A stretch of DNA of 35,198 bases from a virus (IMGVR_UViG_2548876963_000010), one strand, 5' to 3'; positions 1,829 to 34,682 are shown, counted from the first letter of the stretch. Notes: generated by a model from the letters alone, not told the origin. Numbers and translations are program-made.

Positions 1829-4483
1829 TTATCGTTGAAAAACCCAACACTTCACCGTCGCCGGGCGGCGCGGTGCGGCAGGGTAACGGCGGTTAAATTC
1901 AGCGTTGATGCCGCTGTTAACCGTTCTGACTTCAATAAACTTGTGGGTACGGCTGGTTTTTAGCACTCGCTTCAAATCGCTGATCGGCGGGATCTGCTGG
2001 CGGCGCTCGGTAGCCAGTTGAATAAAGTGGTTAAGGTTAACGGCGATAAGCTGTTCATCGCGCGAGTGGTTGAGCTGTGGTTCGTCGTCGCCATCGAGGA
2101 AGTCGAAAATATCCCAGAACTCCTGCACCAGAGGATGGTCGGCGCTGATGGCCTGTTGGCGCTCCAGACTGAGGCGGATAAACATTTCTCTGGTCGCCTG
2201 TAGCTGCTCTTCCGTGACCGGAATAACCAGCGCCAGCGCGTCGAGCAACGCCATAAGCTGGGCGTGGTTTTTAATGATGCGGATATGGCGAATATCTGGG
2301 TGGGAGTGAAGCTGCTGCTCATATAGCGGGATCTGCCGGTTAACGCACCCCAGCACGGCCTGTTCTGCCAGCGCTGCTTTCAGCATAAAGCCAGAAAGCT
2401 GTTCCACCGGCAGGCGTTCGAGCTGCTCGGCGGCGACCTTGGTCTGGGTATTCTGACCGCTGCGGTCGGTGTACAGGTGAATAATACGTTCCAGCACCGG
2501 GTTAGAGGCGCTGACGTCGGCGTTTTGCGCAATTACAATCGCGCCCCGGAACGGCGGTTCATAGGTCTCGTTACCGCTGTTACGCAGACCGCGAGAACGT
2601 ACCGACCGCCCGTTGTAGGCGGTTTTCAGCTCTTCCCAATCAAAGCCGCGCTGTTTTGCACCCTCCTGATTACGGTCACCCTCGATCAGCACTACCGGCA
2701 TATTCGCCACCTGCGCAAAGTTGCGCGCGCGGGCGGCCAGCGTTGATTTAGACGGATCGAAACCTTCATAGTCGCGTCGGCCCAACAGTTTCCAGAGGAA
2801 CTCTATCAGCGTGGTTTTACCGCTGCCGGGTTCGCCGACGATTTCCAGAAACGGAAAGCTCTTATGCTTGTCGCGGATCTGTTCGGCAAACATCGTCCCA
2901 AACCAGAACGCCAGCGCCACAAACCCCTTTGCGCCAAACGCCTGCCAGAGTAGCTGGGGCCACTGGCTGTCCATCTGTTTTAAATTGTCGTTCAGCGTCA
3001 GGCTGACCGACTGGTTCAGGCTTTTAAGGCTGAGTTTGCCCATGTCGAAGAAGTCTTCTTCGTTGAGTGCGTACAGCCGACCATCGCGAACGGCCAGATC
3101 GTTGAACACGTAAGCGCGGTATTCTTTGCTATAGCCGATAAAATCGGTGGTCTGGACGGTTTTGATTTTGGGAAGTTGCTTGAGCAGCAGCTTATCTAAC
3201 TGCTGACTAGTGCCAGTAAAGATGCCGCCCTGTGCGATATGCAGCAGGCGCTTTTTGAATTCTGAGCCGCTGGAAAGTTGGGAGCCGGTGAAGGTGTTTT
3301 TTATCGGCGGCGTGTCGTCCGGGAAGTTAATGCGAAAGTAATACCAGCTTTCGTCGGTGATGGTGTTGGCCTGATAGTAGAGGGCGGTCGGGTAGCAGTT
3401 GGCGATCTCCACCACGGCGGACGACTCTTTCAGCGCCTTCTGTTTCAGCTCTTCTTCGCTCAGGTCGTCATTAGAGAATGAGATACTTTCATGCACCCGC
3501 ATATAGCGGTCAATATCCAGCTTGAACCAGAACAGGCGGCTGTCAAACTCGAAGTGGAACTCTTTACGCTCTGTCTGTTCGTGCATCAGCAGGGCTTTGG
3601 CGGCGGGAGAGGTGGCGATCAGCAGAGAGCCGTAGTAGTGGTATTTCTTCACTAGCTCTGGGTTAAGCCGGTCGCGCTGGTGCAAATCGTTCCAGTCCAG
3701 CTTGCTGCGGGAATGCGGCGTCTGTGCGGCGGCTGCGCTCCAGCCTTCGTCCCGGCTGCGCTTTACCCATCGCCGGGTATAGCTCATGCCCGCCTTGTCG
3801 TTATCCAGCGCCCAGACCAGTAAAGGGCGCTTTTTATCCACGAACAGAGCGGCCAGTTGACTTAACGCCTGCGCCGGATAGTTGTTGCAGGTCATCAGGG
3901 AAACGGCGGCGATGCCGTGGTGATGCAAGGCTATGGCGTCAAAAATGCCTTCAACCAGCCAGATCTCCTGCTGTTCTTCCAGCTTCAGCGTTGGCAATTG
4001 CCACCATAGCCCGCTGTAAGCGCCGTGAAAGTTGGCTTTGCGATCGCCGAAACGCTGTGGGCGGTCAACGATTCGCTCCCACCACACGCCGTCAGCCAGC
4101 GGGAAACGCACGGTGGCCGAGCCGATATCGCGCCGTGCGTCGTAGTAGTTCTCTTGAGCGTAACAGTCACGGATCAGCGAAAGGTCAAAGCCGCGCATCT
4201 CGCGCAGGTAGGCATCGGCGGCGGCCTGTGGGTTTTCCGGGGTTGGGGGATATCTGTCTGACCAGCTTTCAAATAGATCCGGGTACACCTCTTTGATATG
4301 GATTTCGGCATTGCATTTATTCAGGCGACCGCAGCGCAGTACCCACGGGCTGATGGCGTTGGTGTACAGCTCTTTTTTCTGGCAGTCCGGGCAGACGCCC
4401 TGCCGCAGCCAGTCGCCCTGTTCTTTAAAGGAAAAATCGGCTAGCAGTCGCCGCGTAATTTCCTGATGAAGTTGTGGTTGCAT
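1829..4483 (-). CDS. Primase-helicase replication protein (P4 alpha-like)
   Basis: 884 aa; N-terminal zinc-finger CPDCQKK...CGRLNKC, Toprim-like acidic motifs (WLVEGIFDAIAL, ALDNDKAG), C-terminal Walker A GEPGSGKT and Walker B-like VVLIEGD. Confidence 0.85.
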   Translation of the reverse strand: MQPQLHQEITRRLLADFSFKEQGDWLRQGVCPDCQKKELYTNAISPWVLRCGRLNKCNAEIHIKEVYPDLFESWSDRYPPTPENPQAAADAYLREMRGFDLSLIRDCYAQENYYDARRDIGSATVRFPLADGVWWERIVDRPQRFGDRKANFHGAYSGLWWQLPTLKLEEQQEIWLVEGIFDAIALHHHGIAAVSLMTCNNYPAQALSQLAALFVDKKRPLLVWALDNDKAGMSYTRRWVKRSRDEGWSAAAAQTPHSRSKLDWNDLHQRDRLNPELVKKYHYYGSLLIATSPAAKALLMHEQTERKEFHFEFDSRLFWFKLDIDRYMRVHESISFSNDDLSEEELKQKALKESSAVVEIANCYPTALYYQANTITDESWYYFRINFPDDTPPIKNTFTGSQLSSGSEFKKRLLHIAQGGIFTGTSQQLDKLLLKQLPKIKTVQTTDFIGYSKEYRAYVFNDLAVRDGRLYALNEEDFFDMGKLSLKSLNQSVSLTLNDNLKQMDSQWPQLLWQAFGAKGFVALAFWFGTMFAEQIRDKHKSFPFLEIVGEPGSGKTTLIEFLWKLLGRRDYEGFDPSKSTLAARARNFAQVANMPVVLIEGDRNQEGAKQRGFDWEELKTAYNGRSVRSRGLRNSGNETYEPPFRGAIVIAQNADVSASNPVLERIIHLYTDRSGQNTQTKVAAEQLERLPVEQLSGFMLKAALAEQAVLGCVNRQIPLYEQQLHSHPDIRHIRIIKNHAQLMALLDALALVIPVTEEQLQATREMFIRLSLERQQAISADHPLVQEFWDIFDFLDGDDEPQLNHSRDEQLIAVNLNHFIQLATERRQQIPPISDLKRVLKTSRTHKFIEVRTVNSGINAEFNRRYPAAPRRPATVKCWVFQR

Positions 4484-4571: not shown

Positions 4572-4802
4572 TTACGCGATTTTCTGCTTTTGCAGAAATT
4601 GCCCGCGTGTGGATAGCGGTATGTGTATCTTAGGATTCGGGCAACCGCTGGGTACTACCGTTCCCATCACGGTCTCCATCGCGATAAATGAAAACGAACA
4701 GTTAACGTTCTTGCACTGGTAATAGAGCTTACGTACCAGCGGTGACATATATTCGCTGCTGCGAATTATCGCCTTACCGTCGCAGTGTGGGCATTTCATC
4801 AT
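4572..4802 (-). CDS. ogr: Ogr/Delta-family zinc-finger late transcription activator
   Basis: MMKCPHCDGKA...YYQCKNVNCSFSF matches the C-x2-C...C-x4-C Ogr zinc-finger pattern (P2 Ogr has CPLCQH...HQCQNVNCSATF); strong RBS TAAGGAGA 6 nt upstream of ATG at 4802; the listed ORF start at 4820 is a GTG inside the RBS. Confidence 0.85.
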   Translation of the reverse strand: MMKCPHCDGKAIIRSSEYMSPLVRKLYYQCKNVNCSFSFIAMETVMGTVVPSGCPNPKIHIPLSTRGQFLQKQKIA

Positions 4803-4838
4803 GTCCGATCTCCTTACCACTTTTAACTAACTGAAACA

Positions 4839-5045
4839 CTAACGCTTTTCGTTAACGGACTGACGAAATAGTGTGATGCCGTTCAAAAAAATGATTCTTG
4901 CCATGCTGGACATCGAACGGTTCTGCTCCAGCGCTAATGCTTCCAGTTCCGCGATTTCAGCGGGGAGCAGACGCATTGCCACCGGTTTGTTCGACATCAC
5001 CCCGCGGGGTGCTCGTGAGCGTAAGACGTTCTCATTTGTTTTCAT
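4839..5045 (-). CDS. Small ribbon-helix-helix-like protein, putative Cox-like early regulator
   Basis: 68 aa ORF divergent from XRE gene; segment VAMRLLPAEIAELEALALEQNRSMSSMARIIFLNGI has beta-strand/helix/helix pattern of Arc/CopG family; start uncertain (5045 or internal Met at ~4997). Confidence 0.5.
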   Translation of the reverse strand: MKTNENVLRSRAPRGVMSNKPVAMRLLPAEIAELEALALEQNRSMSSMARIIFLNGITLFRQSVNEKR

Positions 5046-5125
5046 GGTGGTATATTGTGGTTATTAACATTACACAATCTATAATTCCCTCAACTGAGTG
5101 AATTGTCAATGGTAATTATATCCAA

Positions 5126-5464
5126 ATGAAAGAATTTGGCATCCGTTTGAAGGAAGAACGTATCCGACTTGGACTTGATCAAGACGGCTTTGGACAACTT
5201 GGGGGCGTGAAGAAAAACGCACAAAGCAACTATGAGAATGGGTTGCGTAAGCCGGACAGTGACTATCTTGCTGGCATAGCGGCAGCGGGAGTTGATGTTC
5301 TGTATGTTCTAACAGGCAACCGCACGCCTGTAGTTACGTTGTCCAGTAAAGAGAGTGTGTTGGTGGAAAACTATCGTTCTGCTACGCCAGAACACCAGTC
5401 CACCCTTGACACGGTTAGCGCTGCGCTTGCGCAACCGGGAGTAGGGAAAGCAGCTAAGGGATAA
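5126..5464 (+). CDS. XRE-family helix-turn-helix regulator, putative immunity repressor (C-like)
   Basis: 112 aa; N-terminal HTH-like region with QSNYENGLRKPDSDYLAGIAAAGVDVLYVLTG; divergent arrangement with RHH gene across an 80-bp AT-rich switch region. Confidence 0.7.
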   Translation: MKEFGIRLKEERIRLGLDQDGFGQLGGVKKNAQSNYENGLRKPDSDYLAGIAAAGVDVLYVLTGNRTPVVTLSSKESVLVENYRSATPEHQSTLDTVSAALAQPGVGKAAKG

Positions 5465-5504
5465 CGAGTAGAATGAATTTGGTTATTGTCTGTATGGAGG
5501 CAAA

Positions 5505-6077
5505 ATGAAGTTGAATAATCTGGTTGCTCTTTACAGGAACATGACAGAGCAAAAATTGGATAGGGTTAAATTCCCATACAGACACAATAATTTACATTTT
5601 GATGTATTTTTCTTTATTGATGGAAAACCGTTTGAGCTTCTTTTCGGAGCATTAGGCGCTAATCTTTGCTTTCGTCTAAAAGTCGAGAAGGGATTCGTCA
5701 TAAATCCTAATCTGGGAAGTGAGACTTATAAAGAATTATGCAAGGCTCTAGGTTTGAAATATGACCCTGCCAATCCATTTAGAACAAGTAAGTTTTTTGA
5801 AGATTTTGATGGGAAAATCCCTCCATCGGTTACTGTTAAGAATAAGGCAAAATATACTGATATTGCTGTGCATGTCAGGGATGTTGAAGAAGCAGACAGA
5901 ATATATTTCTGTGGATGGAAAAACAACAATGAAGAAAAGAGTCATGTTACTGAAGATAATTTAAAGAAAACGAAAGAGTTTTTAGGGTATCAGGCTTTTC
6001 TTGTTTGTAAGGAAAAGAATATTAGCAGTAGATGGACTGATTTAGAAAATAAAGCGAAAGATTTTTATTTACCATAG
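5505..6077 (+). CDS. Hypothetical protein (190 aa), first gene of AT-rich cargo cassette
   Basis: ORF with GGAGG RBS 8 nt upstream; markedly AT-rich codon usage compared with flanking phage genes; no motif recognised. Confidence 0.6.
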   Translation: MKLNNLVALYRNMTEQKLDRVKFPYRHNNLHFDVFFFIDGKPFELLFGALGANLCFRLKVEKGFVINPNLGSETYKELCKALGLKYDPANPFRTSKFFEDFDGKIPPSVTVKNKAKYTDIAVHVRDVEEADRIYFCGWKNNNEEKSHVTEDNLKKTKEFLGYQAFLVCKEKNISSRWTDLENKAKDFYLP

Positions 6078-6091
6078 GATTGTGAGGTTAT

Positions 6092-7240
6092 ATGTCTGAT
6101 ATTTCATTAGGGTGCGTGGTTGTTCATAGGTTGATAAAAGAGCAACATAAAGATTTCGATCACTCAAAACCATATAGTCGCCGTGATACGGTTCTTGACC
6201 GAAATAATGAAATCGTAATTAAACTAGTGTCCAGTATAGCCGCATTGTATGGTAAAAAATCTAATAGCTCGCATTATGGTATATTTAATTTAGATGAAAC
6301 ACGTAGGGGGCCTTTTCCAGCGGCATTTGATAAATATCGGAATGATACATCCAAGAAGTTAGACGATGAATTGTTTATAGGATTATCAAAAAATGTTATG
6401 CATCAGTTATATATTGAGGCAAAGGATCGACCTGCTGCATCAGGAGGATTACTTCTTTTTGCTGATTATATCAGTAAATCCGTGCGTTACTTTCTTATTG
6501 CAATGATTAAGCAAAAGGAAGGTATAGTTATTAGTGATAAATTAGAACCAAAGGAGTTAGAGCATCTTGATCTGGCAAAACTAAATCAGGCGGCACGAAT
6601 AAACTATGATTTGTATGATAAATATATTTCCGCTGATGAGAATGAAAGACAGGATGTTAATTATTTAAGTTTTGTTAGTCCCAGTTCTAACCAGACAACT
6701 TCAGGGTATTTCATTACTGCCTTAGGTTGTGATAAAGGTAATACATCAACTAAAGCTACGAGTAATTTAATTAATGAATCTTTTAACTTCTTCAGAAATC
6801 ATCAAGAATTAAAGGATAATGCCCGTAAATTTAAAAATGAAATTATTGAGTATTTATTCGATTGTTCTGAGAATAACATTTCAGCTAAGCTCTCTGTTGT
6901 TAGTGAGATGGCAGCGAAGCATATGGTTAATTTAGAAGATGACATTAAAGATAAATTGTCAGAAGAATTATATGCTCATTTGAATAGTGAAAGTATTCGT
7001 GTGCCTGTGGAATTTAGGGTAAGCAAATCAGTAGTTAAGAAAAACAGAAATATTAAATATACAAGTGATAATGTTAATTTTGAGTTTAAATCTAGTTTAC
7101 TAGGCAATACGCTTGATAATGAGATATGCTATAATAAGAAAACTGGACATTTAACTTTTACTCGGATTACTCCTGAGAAAAAAAGTGAAATAGCTCAATT
7201 GCTTGATGAGTTAATAAAAGAAAGAAATAGCGAAAAATAA
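6092..7240 (+). CDS. YejK/NdpA-like (nucleoid-associated protein family) protein, 382 aa
   Basis: N-terminal VVVHRLIKEQHK (cf. E. coli YejK ALHQLIKRDEQ, recalled from memory), SIAALYGKKSNSSHYGIF (cf. ELHRVYSAKNKAYGLF) and ASGGLLLFADYISKSVRYFLIAMI (cf. [24 protein letters not shown]); RBS GTGAGG upstream. Confidence 0.6.
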   Translation: MSDISLGCVVVHRLIKEQHKDFDHSKPYSRRDTVLDRNNEIVIKLVSSIAALYGKKSNSSHYGIFNLDETRRGPFPAAFDKYRNDTSKKLDDELFIGLSKNVMHQLYIEAKDRPAASGGLLLFADYISKSVRYFLIAMIKQKEGIVISDKLEPKELEHLDLAKLNQAARINYDLYDKYISADENERQDVNYLSFVSPSSNQTTSGYFITALGCDKGNTSTKATSNLINESFNFFRNHQELKDNARKFKNEIIEYLFDCSENNISAKLSVVSEMAAKHMVNLEDDIKDKLSEELYAHLNSESIRVPVEFRVSKSVVKKNRNIKYTSDNVNFEFKSSLLGNTLDNEICYNKKTGHLTFTRITPEKKSEIAQLLDELIKERNSEK

Positions 7241-7251
7241 GGTTGCTTAAT

Positions 7252-8508
7252 ATGTCATGTTTTGAAACGGTTGTTGAGCTTTTCAGATATGTAGGGCGTC
7301 CTAAATTTGATGCTATTAATAATCGTTTTTCAGCAACTATTTCTTATGATGCTCATATATATGAACTCTTAGTTTCTTTGCAACCTCATACCGCGTGGGG
7401 AGAAATTGAAGAGATTGTCATTGATGATGTGGATATAGATGTTGATGATAGCCTTCCCGCTAAAGGAACATCAATAACACTGACAATCTCTATATCAACT
7501 GGAGCCAGTGAGTCATTTTTTATCGATATTAAAGATCTAATTCAAAAGTCTCCGATGTTAAATAGAGGTATTTTAAGAAAGTCTTTTTACTTGGTTGAGG
7601 AAGATTTTTATTTTAATGAAGGAATGGTTGAGGGATTAGCAAAAATACCAGAACTATCTGTTTTAAAAAATCTTTGTGATTTTATTTTATGTCTATCAAA
7701 AGTTGCACACTACAGCAATAGTAAAAGTGATGATGTATGCCATAAGTTAGTTTTCTTGAAAAATACTAATGCTAAGTCATTACCTTTAATTATTGAAACT
7801 AATGTTGATTATTCACTTCTTTTAACAGGTATTAAGGATTTAAAAATCATCGAATCTTTTTCTGATGAAAAAAAAGCTATAACGGATGATAATTATTTTG
7901 AGCGAAAAGGGATTTTCATTAATACGGTGGTCGATTTTCTTGAATCAATCGATGTAAAGAAACAGTTTCATTTTTTATTCTGTGAGTGGGATGAATTTCT
8001 AAAACTATACCATAATAACCTCGGTGTATATCTTAGTGGTTTTTCATTTCATAAAGTAAGAAAGGAAGTGGCAGAGGCAGAAGCTAATTTAGCTGAGCGT
8101 TTTTCAAAAATAATGTCAGACATGATAGCTAAGCTTTTAGGTATTCCTGTTTCTTTGGTTGCTACTTTTGGCATGATAAAATTAAATACCCTGCCGGAAA
8201 TGTTAGTGGTTTTTTTAGGTGTATTGCTCACGTCGATAATTATGTTTTTTATTGTAAGAAGTCAATACACACAGTTTAGGATGATTTGTGATGCTAAAGA
8301 TATTATATTTTCCCCATTAGTGAAAAAATCTGTAGGTTATACAGAAGATTTGAAAAAATTAGTATGCAATGCAAAGGATAATTTAGACAAAAATCAGGTC
8401 ATGTTAAATCGTTACCTTCTTTTCTTTCAATGCTTATGCTGGATTCCGACAGCCTTAGGTGGTGGAATGATCTTAATGGCTATTATGGTTCATTTAGGAT
8501 TACTATAA
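7252..8508 (+). CDS. Hypothetical protein (418 aa) with C-terminal transmembrane helices
   Basis: ATG at 7252 (listed ORF starts at a TTG at 7243); hydrophobic stretches IPVSLVATFGMIKL...MLVVFLGVLLTSIIMFFIV and YLLFFQCLCWIPTALGGGMILMAIMVHLGLL at the C-terminus; AT-rich. Confidence 0.6.
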   Translation: MSCFETVVELFRYVGRPKFDAINNRFSATISYDAHIYELLVSLQPHTAWGEIEEIVIDDVDIDVDDSLPAKGTSITLTISISTGASESFFIDIKDLIQKSPMLNRGILRKSFYLVEEDFYFNEGMVEGLAKIPELSVLKNLCDFILCLSKVAHYSNSKSDDVCHKLVFLKNTNAKSLPLIIETNVDYSLLLTGIKDLKIIESFSDEKKAITDDNYFERKGIFINTVVDFLESIDVKKQFHFLFCEWDEFLKLYHNNLGVYLSGFSFHKVRKEVAEAEANLAERFSKIMSDMIAKLLGIPVSLVATFGMIKLNTLPEMLVVFLGVLLTSIIMFFIVRSQYTQFRMICDAKDIIFSPLVKKSVGYTEDLKKLVCNAKDNLDKNQVMLNRYLLFFQCLCWIPTALGGGMILMAIMVHLGLL

Positions 8509-9603
8509 ACTTAATTCCATTTCTAATGCGGTGACATAACCAGTACCGCCATCCAACGTATGCACGCACCGCGTAATCACCCACGCGGTGCCGTCAATCT
8601 CCGCCTTAAACCCCTTCACCTGCACCGGTAGTTCCGGGAACAAATCGGGCCGTCCACGCGCAAGGTTCAGGCTGAACGTTGCCGCGCCGCGCTGTAGTTG
8701 CTCCCACGCGCTTTTTGCCGCTCTGTAGGCGTTATTTTTGTTGGCATAGGTGTGGCGCAGCACCTTGATATTTCCCTCTTCGCCGACCATCACGTTATCG
8801 GCGTTGAATGAGGCGTCTGACGGCGGCGATTCTGTTGGTTGCGTTTGCGGAAGGTTTTTCCGTGTCTTGCGCTTCACGTCAGTTGACTGCTTTTTAGCCT
8901 GCCGCGTATCCAGCCAGTAGGCCGTTACGCCGGTATAGGCTTCCCTGTCCGCGATGCTGAACCGGTGGCTGTCGCCGTCCTCGCGGTTAATGGTTGCGAC
9001 CGGCAGCGGCTTGCCGCTGGCGCTTTTACCGGAACCTGTCGGCATCAGCAGCAGAGCATCATTTTTCACGCAGGCGATAGCGCCGTGCATTTGCGCCAGC
9101 CGGGTTAGGAAGGATGCATCAGACTCGTTAGTCTGGTCAACGTGCTCAATGGCGATCCCAGCCAGCTCGCCGCTGACGGTTGATTCCAGCTTATGACGTG
9201 CCGCCACGGTTTGCACAATCGCGCCCAGCGTCACATCATGGTAGCTCTGTTCCCGTTTAACGTTCAGCGAATCGCGGAAATCGGCGCTGCGGGCGCGGAG
9301 GCTGAGTACGTCCGGTGCGCCGCTGTGCTCCAGTTCGTCCACTGTGAAGACATTCTGGTGCATCACGCCGTCACCCTTCCAGCCCAGAGAAACCGTTAGC
9401 TTTTCGCCCTTTGCCGGAAACGCCAGCAGGCCGTCGCTGTCGTCCAGTTCGAGCTGCAGTTCGTCGGCCTCAAAGCCCCGGTTGTCGGTGATACGCAGGC
9501 TGATTAAGCGGTTGTCCAGATTCCGCGTAATGTCCTTACCGTTCAGCACCACGCTGTACTCCGGCTGCGGCTGGGCGTTTAAGAGTGCGTTTAACATCGT
9601 CAT
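8503..9603 (-). CDS. D: Tail protein D (P2 gpD-like)
   Basis: 366 aa; position and order at the end of FI-FII-E-T-U-D tail operon; ATGA overlap with upstream U stop. Confidence 0.85.
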   Translation of the reverse strand: MTMLNALLNAQPQPEYSVVLNGKDITRNLDNRLISLRITDNRGFEADELQLELDDSDGLLAFPAKGEKLTVSLGWKGDGVMHQNVFTVDELEHSGAPDVLSLRARSADFRDSLNVKREQSYHDVTLGAIVQTVAARHKLESTVSGELAGIAIEHVDQTNESDASFLTRLAQMHGAIACVKNDALLLMPTGSGKSASGKPLPVATINREDGDSHRFSIADREAYTGVTAYWLDTRQAKKQSTDVKRKTRKNLPQTQPTESPPSDASFNADNVMVGEEGNIKVLRHTYANKNNAYRAAKSAWEQLQRGAATFSLNLARGRPDLFPELPVQVKGFKAEIDGTAWVITRCVHTLDGGTGYVTALEMELSL

Positions 9604-25846: not shown

Positions 25847-26014
25847 TCAAGTGAAAAGGCTAAAACAGATCAGTACCAACTTCGTCTTGCTCATGAATTT
25901 AGAAAGCAGCTTGAAGAACAGGCTCGTAAAGATGGAGATACCTCTCTCGCAACATGGATAAAACGCGTTTTGCGTAAGGAACTTCAGTCACGAGGTATTG
26001 AACCCAAAGGATAA
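25844..26014 (+). CDS. Small ribbon-helix-helix (Arc/MetJ-like) DNA-binding protein, 56 aa
   Basis: Not in supplied ORF track (below its length cutoff); MSSEKAKTDQYQLRLAHEFRKQLEEQARKDGDTSLATWIKRVLRKELQSRGIEPKG: beta-strand then two helices as in Arc. Confidence 0.6.
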   Translation: MSSEKAKTDQYQLRLAHEFRKQLEEQARKDGDTSLATWIKRVLRKELQSRGIEPKG

Positions 26015-26115
26015 TTACGGAGATATCAAGCAGCGCTAAGAAGTTAGGATTATTTGTTCAGCCCAGATTAGTCGATATGCACTGATTAACTTAAACATTG
26101 TGTGTAGGAGGTGTT

Positions 26116-26769
26116 GTGGATATTGAATTTTTTCTTAAAGAGCGCACAAGATTCGTTACTTATTTCTATGAAACGGCTGCTGCACCATTTGTTAACATCA
26201 TGAATGATATTGAGAATGAAGTGGAACCTTATATTCAGCCGTATGGTGAGAGTGATGAACCAGCTTTTTTAGATGAATGGTTAGATGCAAAGTCGGGATT
26301 AGAAACCTGTGGGCACCATGCATTATCGATGCTTTCGTCTTCTCTTCAGTTGTACCTGAAGGCGTGGGTAGATCGCTTAGGATATCATAGCGTGAAATCT
26401 GATATAAATTTCAAGAAGGGTTGGTTTAATGGCTATCGTGAAATTTTCAACAAAATTGAGTTGGAAATGGCAAAATGTCCTGCAAATTTGGAAATAATTG
26501 AACAAATTCCCTTGGTGAGAAATCGTGTCCAGCATCCTGAGGAACTTACCTCAATTAATATTTCTCACTCAAAAAATGACTTGGAAAAATATCCTCGCCC
26601 ATACTTTATTCAGGAGTGTGAGCTACTTTTGGCTTCCGAACAGGAAGAAAAATCGTGGTTATTCCCACCTACAATATCCCCGACTAAAGAGAAAATATTC
26701 GAAGCTATCAGAAATGTTGAAATGCTGTGCTCTTGGTTAGAGTCTGAGTATTGGTCGGCTCTTGACTAA
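26116..26769 (+). CDS. Hypothetical protein (217 aa) with R-x4-H motif, possible HEPN-domain protein
   Basis: GTG start at 26116 with AGGAGG 6 nt upstream (ORF track lists 26098); AT-rich; motif VRNRVQHPEE (R-x4-H). Confidence 0.55.
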   Translation: MDIEFFLKERTRFVTYFYETAAAPFVNIMNDIENEVEPYIQPYGESDEPAFLDEWLDAKSGLETCGHHALSMLSSSLQLYLKAWVDRLGYHSVKSDINFKKGWFNGYREIFNKIELEMAKCPANLEIIEQIPLVRNRVQHPEELTSINISHSKNDLEKYPRPYFIQECELLLASEQEEKSWLFPPTISPTKEKIFEAIRNVEMLCSWLESEYWSALD

Positions 26770-32210: not shown

Positions 32211-33187
32211 ATAACGCAATGGCTTTCACCTTCGGTGAACCCGAAGCCCTGCTGGACAGGCGGGAAATACTGAACTATCTGGAGTGCGTGGACTTTGGTA
32301 AATGGTATGCGCCGCCGGTGGATTTTAACTCGCTGGCGCTGTCGTTCCGCGCTTCGGCGCATCATACCAGCCCGATCTGCGTGAAGCGCAATGTGCTGGT
32401 TGGTACCTTCATTCCTCATCCGTTGCTAACCCGGCAGGCGTTCAGCCGCCTTGCGCTGGACTATCTGGTGTTCGGCAACGCTTATCTGGAGCGGCAGGAT
32501 AACCGGCTGGGCCAGCCGTTAACGCTGGTGCCTGCGCTGGCGAAGTATGTCCGCCGCGGTAAGGCGCTGGAGAACTATTTCTTTGTTCAGCCCGGTCGTG
32601 TGGATCATGAGTTTGCGCCGGGAAGTATCGGCCACCTGCTGGAGCCGGATATCAATCAGGAAATCTACGGCCTGCCGGAATATCTCTCTGCGTTGAACGC
32701 GGCATGGCTGGATAACTCCGCCACGTTGTTTCGTCGCCGTTACTACAAGAACGGCAGTCATGCCGGGTTCATTCTCTACCTGAGCGACCCGGCTCATAAT
32801 GAGGCGGATATTGAAGCACTGCAAGTGGCGCTGGCGAACAGCCGTGGCCCCGGCAACTTCCGCAATTTGCTGATGTATTTGCCGAACGGCAAGCCGGACA
32901 GCGTAAAGGTGATCCCGATTGGCGAGGTGGCGGCGAAAGATAACTTCTCCGATATCAAAAGCGTCAGCCGTGACGACCAGCTAGCCGCGCACCGGGTACC
33001 ACCTGCGCTCATGGGCGTGGTGCCGAGTAACGCCGGTGGCTTTGGTGATGCCATCAAAGCGGCGAAGGTATTCAACTGCAATGAGATCGAGCCGCTGCAG
33101 GAACGCTTTAAGGAACTGAACGACTGGTTGGGGCTGGAGGTTATTCGCTTCAAAAAGTACCGCCTTGCCGACGACGATTCAGAGTAA
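32207..33187 (+). CDS. Q: Portal protein (P2 gpQ-like)
   Basis: 326 aa; translationally coupled to P. Confidence 0.9.
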   Translation: MNNAMAFTFGEPEALLDRREILNYLECVDFGKWYAPPVDFNSLALSFRASAHHTSPICVKRNVLVGTFIPHPLLTRQAFSRLALDYLVFGNAYLERQDNRLGQPLTLVPALAKYVRRGKALENYFFVQPGRVDHEFAPGSIGHLLEPDINQEIYGLPEYLSALNAAWLDNSATLFRRRYYKNGSHAGFILYLSDPAHNEADIEALQVALANSRGPGNFRNLLMYLPNGKPDSVKVIPIGEVAAKDNFSDIKSVSRDDQLAAHRVPPALMGVVPSNAGGFGDAIKAAKVFNCNEIEPLQERFKELNDWLGLEVIRFKKYRLADDDSE

Positions 33188-34127: not shown

Positions 34128-34667
34128 TTAATTAAACCAGCTGTCCGATTTGTTCTCTTCTGCTTTGCCCACGCTTTTCATCAGATCTCGACCGCCCTCA
34201 GTCATATTCCTGTTTGCGTCAGCTTCAGATTGCACCACATCGGTTTGCGCAGCTTTGTGCTTCAGTTCCTGATCGATAAATTCGTTTTCTCGCTTAACGC
34301 GGGCTTCTTCTTTCGCCAGCGCCAGTTTTTGCTTCTGAATCTCTAAGCTACGTAGCTCATCTTCATAACTTTGATCGCGTTTTTTGTCCGCAGTGGCTTC
34401 GGCGTCCAGTTTATCCTGACGAGCTTTCTTATTCGCTGCTGCCGTTGCCGCTCTTTTATTAGCCGCGGCCTGGGCGTTTGCGCGACGTTGCTTCTCTTGC
34501 TGGATTTCCCTGTTGCGCTCCGCGACCCATTCGTCATGCTGCCTTTGCTCTTCATTTTTACCTTGCTGTTCCGCTTCTGCGACAGCCGAGAGTTGATCCT
34601 GCAATGATGAGGCGATAGCCGGATAGCTTAAGGAGGCTAAGATGGCGCAAAGAAAAACTTTCTTCAT
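34128..34667 (-). CDS. Secreted Lys/Ala/Glu-rich coiled-coil protein (likely host chromosomal)
   Basis: 179 aa with N-terminal signal peptide (MKKVFLCAILASLSYPAIASS); outside prophage. Confidence 0.65.
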   Translation of the reverse strand: MKKVFLCAILASLSYPAIASSLQDQLSAVAEAEQQGKNEEQRQHDEWVAERNREIQQEKQRRANAQAAANKRAATAAANKKARQDKLDAEATADKKRDQSYEDELRSLEIQKQKLALAKEEARVKRENEFIDQELKHKAAQTDVVQSEADANRNMTEGGRDLMKSVGKAEENKSDSWFN

Positions 34668-34682
34668 GACTCCTCCTGATTA

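Follow-up and report, generated by a model that had tools for sequence, protein, structure and literature searches.

The 35,198-nucleotide (nt) viral sequence IMGVR_UViG_2548876963_000010, referred to here in its entirety as the window, is of the P2-like prophage type, judging from gene content and order in PHROG and Pfam profile matches, and carries three co-oriented cargo genes between its repressor gene and tail gene D. The last of these (7252-8508, + strand) begins with ATG at 7252, ends with TAA at 8506-8508 and encodes a protein of 418 amino acids (aa). The open reading frame (ORF) called in the initial annotation stands, as its start methionine is also the RefSeq start in a 99.5%-identical Escherichia coli prophage and begins the homologs as well, and the chance of an open frame of 418 codons is about 5e-16 at the local GC content of 31.5% (stop probability 0.081 per codon). 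The protein matches phrog_5023 (3e-52) and has no match in Pfam. The gene directly upstream (6092-7240, + strand) encodes a 382-aa NA37/YejK-like nucleoid-associated protein (NAP), recognised by Pfam NA37 (5.7e-46) and by similarity to the YejK structure 9be2 in PDB (1.7e-9). We consider it likely that these two genes constitute an anti-phage system of the DS-1 or type II PANGU kind, carried as cargo in a prophage hotspot, in which the 418-aa protein is the membrane effector and the NAP is the putative sensor.

Gene neighbourhoods were compared in 45 loci fetched with the effector or its family profile, comprising 24 GTDB genomes, 17 IMG/VR contigs and 4 contigs encoding database homologs. In all 45 loci a NA37 gene is located immediately upstream of the effector homolog on the same strand; in the window the two genes are co-oriented and 11 nt apart. 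The surroundings of the pair vary, and include a P4-like island in Serratia, the moron position between Q and holin in a lambdoid prophage, and chromosomal islands. Because the pairing is strict while the contexts differ, the NA37 protein and the membrane protein form the conserved unit. The NAP of the window reaches 108.8 bits against the NCBIfam YejK equivalog model (NF001557), below the cut-off of 341, and is thus a diverged paralog rather than the housekeeping YejK. Table S10 of PMC13092281 includes, as a predicted novel defence gene, an E. coli "nucleoid-associated protein" of 382 aa (WP_120130707.1, 1149 bp); it is equal in length to the NA37 protein of the window, the two having been compared by length alone.

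The effector family is large. A profile search covering 1.84 billion cluster representatives (50% identity) recovered 994 at E<=1e-3, of which 198 reach E<=1e-30; a word-indexed search returned only 9 relatives. Nearly all members are full-length (400-430 aa), and hosts in GTDB and IMG/VR include Xenorhabdus, Pantoea, Halomonadaceae, many Pseudomonas, Pseudoalteromonas, Vibrionaceae, Desulfobacterota, a Moraniibacteriota metagenome-assembled genome (MAG) and a Methanosarcina MAG contig. The pairs in the last two, on a 6.3 kb contig assigned to an archaeon (L008) and on one assigned to a bacterium of the candidate phyla radiation (CPR; L010), are full-length and could reflect either genuine horizontal spread or mis-binning. 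Some loci are decayed. In Serratia (L003 and L004, 6866-7999) the NA37 gene is split into ORFs of 233 and 105 aa next to an effector gene that is intact, in an insect-symbiotic Pantoea (L030, 4864-7140) both genes of the pair are fragmented, and in two Pseudomonas loci (L026 and L029) the effector gene is split.

The effector has an acidic alpha/beta N-terminal domain (residues 1 to approximately 245), followed by a long stalk helix (246-295) and then by C-terminal hydrophobic helices. The N-terminal domain has a net charge of -14 and an isoelectric point of 5.0, the family median charge being -12 with a range of -23 to -7. The AlphaFold2 (AF2) model has a predicted local distance difference test score (pLDDT) of 84, and the N-terminal domain modelled alone has a pLDDT of 88 and a predicted template modelling score (pTM) of 0.84. 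No solved structural relative of this domain was found, and comparison of the family profile with PDB sequences gave nothing meaningful. The initial annotation proposed a soluble N-terminal part and two hydrophobic helices; the first part of this description holds, since a soluble region of about 290 aa precedes the hydrophobic helices, but hydropathy across 39 family members reveals three conserved C-terminal segments rather than two.

The first of these segments (residues 291-310; 8122-8181, + strand) is moderately hydrophobic, coincides with an AF2 helix at 297-310 and contains conserved K294, P299 and S301. The second (residues 316-337; 8197-8262, + strand) is the strongest candidate for a transmembrane (TM) helix, with a Kyte-Doolittle peak of 2.94 (family peak 2.56), and lies within an AF2 helix spanning 314-362. 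The third (residues 389-412; 8416-8487, + strand) contains a conserved W397-x-P399 motif and coincides with AF2 helices at 365-395 and 398-415. Segments 2 and 3 are separated by an amphipathic helical hairpin of about 50 residues (338-388), which has a family net charge of +1.7. The number of true membrane spans is estimated here from hydropathy in combination with the AF2 helices, and the predicted topology has segments 1 and 2 forming a hairpin, residues 338-388 in the cytoplasm and a last span that would place the C-terminus outside the cell.

Both proteins of the pair are related to a validated defence system. The NAP matches the NCBIfam model DS1_1_antiphage ("nucleoid-associated anti-phage protein") with 1.2e-22 and 80.5 bits (equivalog cut-off 330), and the effector matches DS1_2_antiphage with 1.4e-19 and 70.5 bits (equivalog cut-off 315); these equivalog models are NF053868 and NF053869. 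Alignment of the effector family profile to DS-1B (WP_000150292.1, taken from Table S8 of PMC13092281) with hhalign gave a probability of 96.4% and an E-value of 1.4e-9 over 261 columns, including the region that runs into the first membrane helices, and BLASTP aligned the NAP with DS-1A at 26% identity over 214 aa (4e-9). DS-1, which comprises two E. coli genes, is counted as a validated defence system in the DefensePredictor study (DeWeirdt et al., Science 2026; PMC13092281); in it, a YejK-domain protein, DS-1A (WP_000355468.1, 391 aa), is followed by the 404-aa DS-1B (WP_000150292.1) (PMC13092281). As in the window, the NA37/YejK protein comes first and a protein of about 400 aa with C-terminal hydrophobic helices comes second, and both pairs occur in E. 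coli. In contrast, DS-1A has an N-terminal zinc-ribbon extension, such that NA37 starts at residue 42, whereas the NAP of the window begins directly with NA37, and the window pair differs from DS-1 in being prophage-borne and located behind a DUF6037 gene.

A second point of comparison is provided by the PANGU systems (Li et al., April 2026), in which a NAP is combined with the GRel toxSAS toxin (type I; Pag1A and Pag1B) or, in type II, the NAP Pag2A is combined with Pag2B, whose acidic N-terminal part is a DNA-mimic domain and whose C-terminal part is a TM domain (bioRxiv 10.64898/2026.04.06.716658). Both type II genes are needed and confer an Abi-like (abortive infection) phenotype, the trigger being degradation of the host genome by the phage, and for PANGU neither gene singly nor both jointly are toxic, the NAP activating the effector (bioRxiv 10.64898/2026.04.06.716658). 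Pag2A leaves the nucleoid upon T4 infection, T4 escapes via denA (EndoII) mutations, and Pag2B's DMK domain binds Pag2A with a dissociation constant of 19 nM (bioRxiv 10.64898/2026.04.06.716658). The window pair, likewise found in E. coli, has a YejK-like NAP in an operon beside a co-oriented effector in a conserved arrangement, and this effector combines an acidic N-terminal domain with a C-terminal TM domain that is supported by hydropathy and AF2; acidity is thus present where Pag2B has its DMK domain, and DNA mimicry or binding by the window domain is putative. The inter-phylum spread of the window family also matches that reported for "Cluster 2" of PANGU. PANGU operons are bicistronic, whereas the window pair sits within a four-gene repressor operon of a prophage. 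Comparison of the window NAP with PDB did not recover the PANGU complex 9UFP, and a literature search for the RefSeq accessions found nothing beyond the PANGU preprint. The proposal that the protein is membrane-anchored is supported, and that of an effector type is borne out to the extent that the validated relatives of the family, of the DS-1B and Pag2B type, are anti-phage effectors.

A mechanism can be proposed by borrowing its steps from the published systems. In the uninfected lysogen the NAP would be held on chromosomal DNA, and degradation of the host chromosome by an infecting phage would release it. The freed NAP could then bind the acidic cytoplasmic N-terminal domain of the effector, whose C-terminal helices would damage the inner membrane, so that the cell would stop supporting phage growth, resulting in abortive infection.

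Several considerations weigh against this interpretation. A defence role is proposed for this locus from its genes alone, and PADLOC-DB v2 contains no match for any of the three cargo proteins. The DS-1 scores lie far below the equivalog cut-offs, which by sequence places the pair in a distant clade. The likeness of the effector to Pag2B(Ecu) is drawn from the described architecture, and membrane action of Pag2B-type effectors is not established in the preprint (bioRxiv 10.64898/2026.04.06.716658). In addition, we infer co-transcription of the pair with the repressor from gene spacing and a consensus scan. Most likely the window pair is a distant member, and a further instance, of a type of system already known.

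Other defence loci share some features with the pair. Type I PANGU appears to share the same sensor logic, and a NA37 gene followed by RelA_SpoT occupies exactly the same hotspot in the L725 and CEC15 prophages, but its effector is an alarmone synthetase rather than a membrane protein. In phage lambda, the rexAB genes likewise follow the repressor within the immunity operon and include one for a membrane protein that aborts infection. Together with the P2 cargo loci tin/old and Z/fun they share with the window the principle of prophage-encoded defence; there is no sequence relationship between these loci and the window genes, the sensor is different, and the window hotspot is situated between the repressor gene and D, the integrase of this P2-like lineage being located elsewhere (1-1200). 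Kiwa consists of the membrane protein KwaA and the DNA-binding protein KwaB. On paper it also pairs a membrane protein with a DNA-associating protein, yet the window has no PADLOC match to the Kiwa models and differs in gene order and domains.

The first gene of the cargo (5505-6077, + strand) encodes a 190-aa protein of the DUF6037 family (Pfam, 2.5e-31). This gene accompanies none of the 45 fetched NA37/effector pairs and was found in this comparison only in the window's own cassette. It occurs by contrast as a stand-alone moron, with no NA37 gene nearby, in Yersinia ruckeri, in other lambdoid prophages and in a Ralstonia prophage. These morons (L048 and L050-L053) are encoded on the strand opposite to their neighbours, in the interval between the Q antiterminator region and holin of lambdoid prophages or in the tail region of the Ralstonia prophage. 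In another P2-like prophage (L062) an 89%-identical DUF6037 gene comes first in the same hotspot and is followed by ThsB-TIR, caspase and ASCH genes. On this distribution, DUF6037 is judged not to be part of the NA37/effector pair. The effector, which had been described as a third cargo protein, is accordingly third in position, but it pairs functionally with NA37 and not with DUF6037, and the cargo comprises two modules. A literature search found no mention of DUF6037, which is a recurrent single-gene prophage moron worth testing.

Members of this P2-like lineage carry cargo in a hotspot bounded by the repressor gene and D, and this cargo is invariably of low GC content and co-oriented with the repressor. 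The type II-like NAP and TM-protein pair of the window (5437-8550) is replaced by NA37 and RelA_SpoT (type I-like) in L002 (6460-8600), by WYL-TM, ThsB-TIR and caspase genes in L056 (8104-9970), by WYL-TM and DUF3644 in L057 (8003-9978), and by DUF6037, TIR, caspase and ASCH in L062 (5960-9437). The NA37 and RelA_SpoT pair is carried by allelic prophages (L002/H4; E. coli L725 and CEC15). The junction of cargo and D is tail to tail in every case, its gap being -6, -4, +2 or +25 nt, and the last three values, which involve unrelated cargos, show tight junctions to be characteristic of the hotspot itself. We discarded the view that cassettes of the type I-like and type II-like kinds are simple effector swaps on a single sensor, as the NAPs of the window and L002 are only about 20% identical; the N-terminal domain of the window effector has no detectable homology to the toxSAS protein.

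At the junction itself the hexamer CTATAA (8503-8508) contains both stop codons, that of D being CTA on the + strand (8503-8505) and that of the effector occupying 8506-8508, so that the 6-bp convergent overlap reported earlier is correct. The absence of a terminator between cassette and D was likewise confirmed, in that a consensus scan of both strands found no terminator-like site at the junction; the nearest candidates on the + strand are weak and lie within D, at 8748 and 8817. A perfect 7-bp stem (CACCGCG...CGCGGTG, approximately 8566-8589) was rejected as a terminator since it has no U-run.

The cargo constitutes an exchangeable low-GC cassette (about 31%; 5437-8550), as defined by composition and by pairwise alignment with L002, an allelic prophage. 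The two are homologous in nucleotide sequence up to about 5437, 9 codons short of the repressor stop, and again from about 8535-8551, 11-16 codons before the stop of D. Overall D has a GC content of 58%, but its last 8 codons (ALEMELSL; 8506-8529, - strand) have 25% in the window according to the codon listing, compared with 54-58% in L002 and L056, where the D proteins end in ...AVECELGL(E)D. The C-terminus of D is still homologous at the protein level (...TRCVHTLD..GY.T..E.EL.L). The AT-rich tail of D and the breaks in homology together indicate that the exchanged segment takes in the end of D and that the overlap came along with it; by these alignments, the recombination events that exchange cassettes appear to fall within the 3' ends of the repressor gene and D. 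Of the two explanations offered previously for the overlap, a very tight insertion is therefore the better, as homology is lost within the 3' end of each flanking gene. In L063, a diverged copy of the cassette (effector 86% identical, about 92% nucleotide identity over a 381-nt aligned junction stretch), both the AT-rich D tail and the identical overlap are kept, which argues that the arrangement is stable and not a fresh accident.

Within the operon the successive gaps between the repressor gene, DUF6037, NA37 and the effector gene are 40, 14 and 11 nt, with no strong promoter- or terminator-like site between the genes. Promoter-like sites that face each other are present at 5029-5142, between the cox-like and repressor genes (+ strand, 5029-5056; - strand, 5142-5115 and 5109-5081), and are candidates for Pc (+) and Pe (-) by analogy with the P2/186 switch, of which convergent, face-to-face Pe and Pc promoters are typical. 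The consensus scan found no + strand promoter-like site from the repressor gene to 700 nt into the NA37 gene, and only 9-of-12 promoter matches within NA37 and the effector gene; the sole + strand terminator-like hairpin of the cassette is a weak one within DUF6037, at 5806. From the spacing and the scan, transcription of the cassette in lysogens probably starts from the repressor promoter and would run antisense into D. The suggestion that it is expressed in the lysogen is thus plausible for genes located downstream of the repressor and co-oriented with it. RNA antisense to the cassette is rich in C and poor in G (skew 0.21), and late transcripts extending past the D stop, being untranslated and C-rich, would likely be a substrate for Rho. 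The P2-type switch turns on the repressor operon in one state and the Ogr-dependent late operon in the other. Transcriptional interference, which the initial annotation took the overlap to imply, is in consequence possible but not implied; tight gaps are normal at this hotspot, and the -6 overlap is kept in L063.

A different reading of the locus would combine DUF6037, the NA37 protein and the membrane protein in one three-component cassette, with the convergent overlap producing functional transcriptional interference with the late tail operon. The co-orientation of the three genes with gaps of 14 and 11 nt, the recurrence of the trio with the same overlap in L063 and the lack of a terminator-like site at the junction are in keeping with this, but we regard it as improbable: DUF6037 is missing from 45 of 45 fetched pairs, lives alone in lambdoid and Ralstonia prophages and heads TIR/caspase cargo in the same hotspot, tight gaps accompany unrelated cargos there, and the two operons are, as is well established, active in opposite states. 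The strict pairing and tight coupling of the genes could also suit a module resembling toxin-antitoxin (TA) systems, in which the membrane protein would be constitutively toxic and the NA37 protein an antitoxin rather than an activator, and several loci with a decayed NA37 or effector gene recall degenerating TA loci. This seems less probable still, as the split NA37 gene beside an intact effector gene in Serratia is hard to square with an essential antitoxin and as the PANGU preprint reports no toxicity from either gene or both, with the NAP as activator.

A role as metabolic or virulence cargo unrelated to phage defence, whether as CorA-like ion channel or transporter or as a pore former resembling ClyA or AhlB, is very unlikely. 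The CorA-type cytosolic alpha/beta domain and the GMN motif ending the first TM helix, which characterise CorA, ZntB and Mrs2, are absent from the effector. A likeness to alpha-pore-forming toxins in a Foldseek comparison (E about 0.5) was not significant. The least probable explanation is a stand-alone superinfection-exclusion or holin-like membrane protein acting independently of NA37, for which the hydrophobic C-terminal helices and the moron position in a prophage might speak; its invariable co-occurrence with NA37 (45/45) and its large conserved cytoplasmic domain of about 290 aa, unlike holins or proteins of the Sie/Imm type, argue otherwise. A two-gene NAP and membrane-effector system remains our preferred explanation. 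It is conceivable, albeit doubtful, that its clade (about 1,000 clusters with no Pfam model) represents a mechanistically distinct NAP/membrane-effector branch that operates only in lysogens by way of the immunity operon, with a regulatory role for DUF6037 and/or the overlap with D. If so, there would be coupling through, for example, antisense read-through into D, or the cassette would be silenced during the prophage's own lytic growth.

The remainder of the window is consistent with a P2-like backbone. The integrase gene (1-1200) is not on the - strand, unlike the other genes left of the repressor, which encode an AlpA-like helix-turn-helix (HTH) protein followed by DUF7673 (between integrase and primase), a Toprim primase (1829-4483), Ogr (4572-4820) and a cox-like Arc/ribbon-helix-helix (RHH) protein (4839-5045), all on the - strand. 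The C-type HTH repressor gene (5126-5464, + strand), identified by HTH_3/HTH_31 matches, by PHROG transcriptional repressor families and by its position opposite the cox-like gene and ogr, heads the rightward (lysogenic) operon, with the three + strand cargo genes downstream. To the right of the cargo are the late genes (D, U, T and others) on the - strand, where D (8503-9603, 366 aa) is the last gene of the late tail operon (Pfam Phage_GPD, 6.4e-23; annotation of L001). The cargo forms a sharp island of about 31% GC, compared with about 57% in the backbone. A second low-GC island (about 38%; 25844-26769), with ORFs of 56 and 223 aa on the + strand amid - strand late genes, is probably a further cargo site; neither ORF has a Pfam match, and the 223-aa ORF also lacks an NCBIfam match.

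The near-identical prophage (99.5% identity) adjoins guaA in E. coli GMF054. In this E. coli record the integrase is beside guaA. The portal gene of the window has its end at 33187. The last two ORFs of the window (34128-35198, - strand) resemble host lipoprotein genes, which suggests that the right end of the prophage lies at about 33.2-34.1 kb, inside a low-GC stretch at 33.5-34.0 kb. Among 5,426 complete E. coli genomes just 2 carry the cassette and 2 others have the same backbone with different cargo, and a megablast search of a phage collection returned no match.

With respect to the initial annotation the main value of this analysis is negative, in that both the "odd" overlap and the "third cargo protein" can be explained in ordinary ways. 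The locus places what is likely to be a defence pair built on a NAP within a P2-like prophage's repressor operon, in a single hotspot whose occupants alternate between NAP systems resembling type I or type II, TIR/caspase cargos and one DUF3644 cargo. These allelic prophages form a natural set in which such systems may be tested in their native regulatory context.
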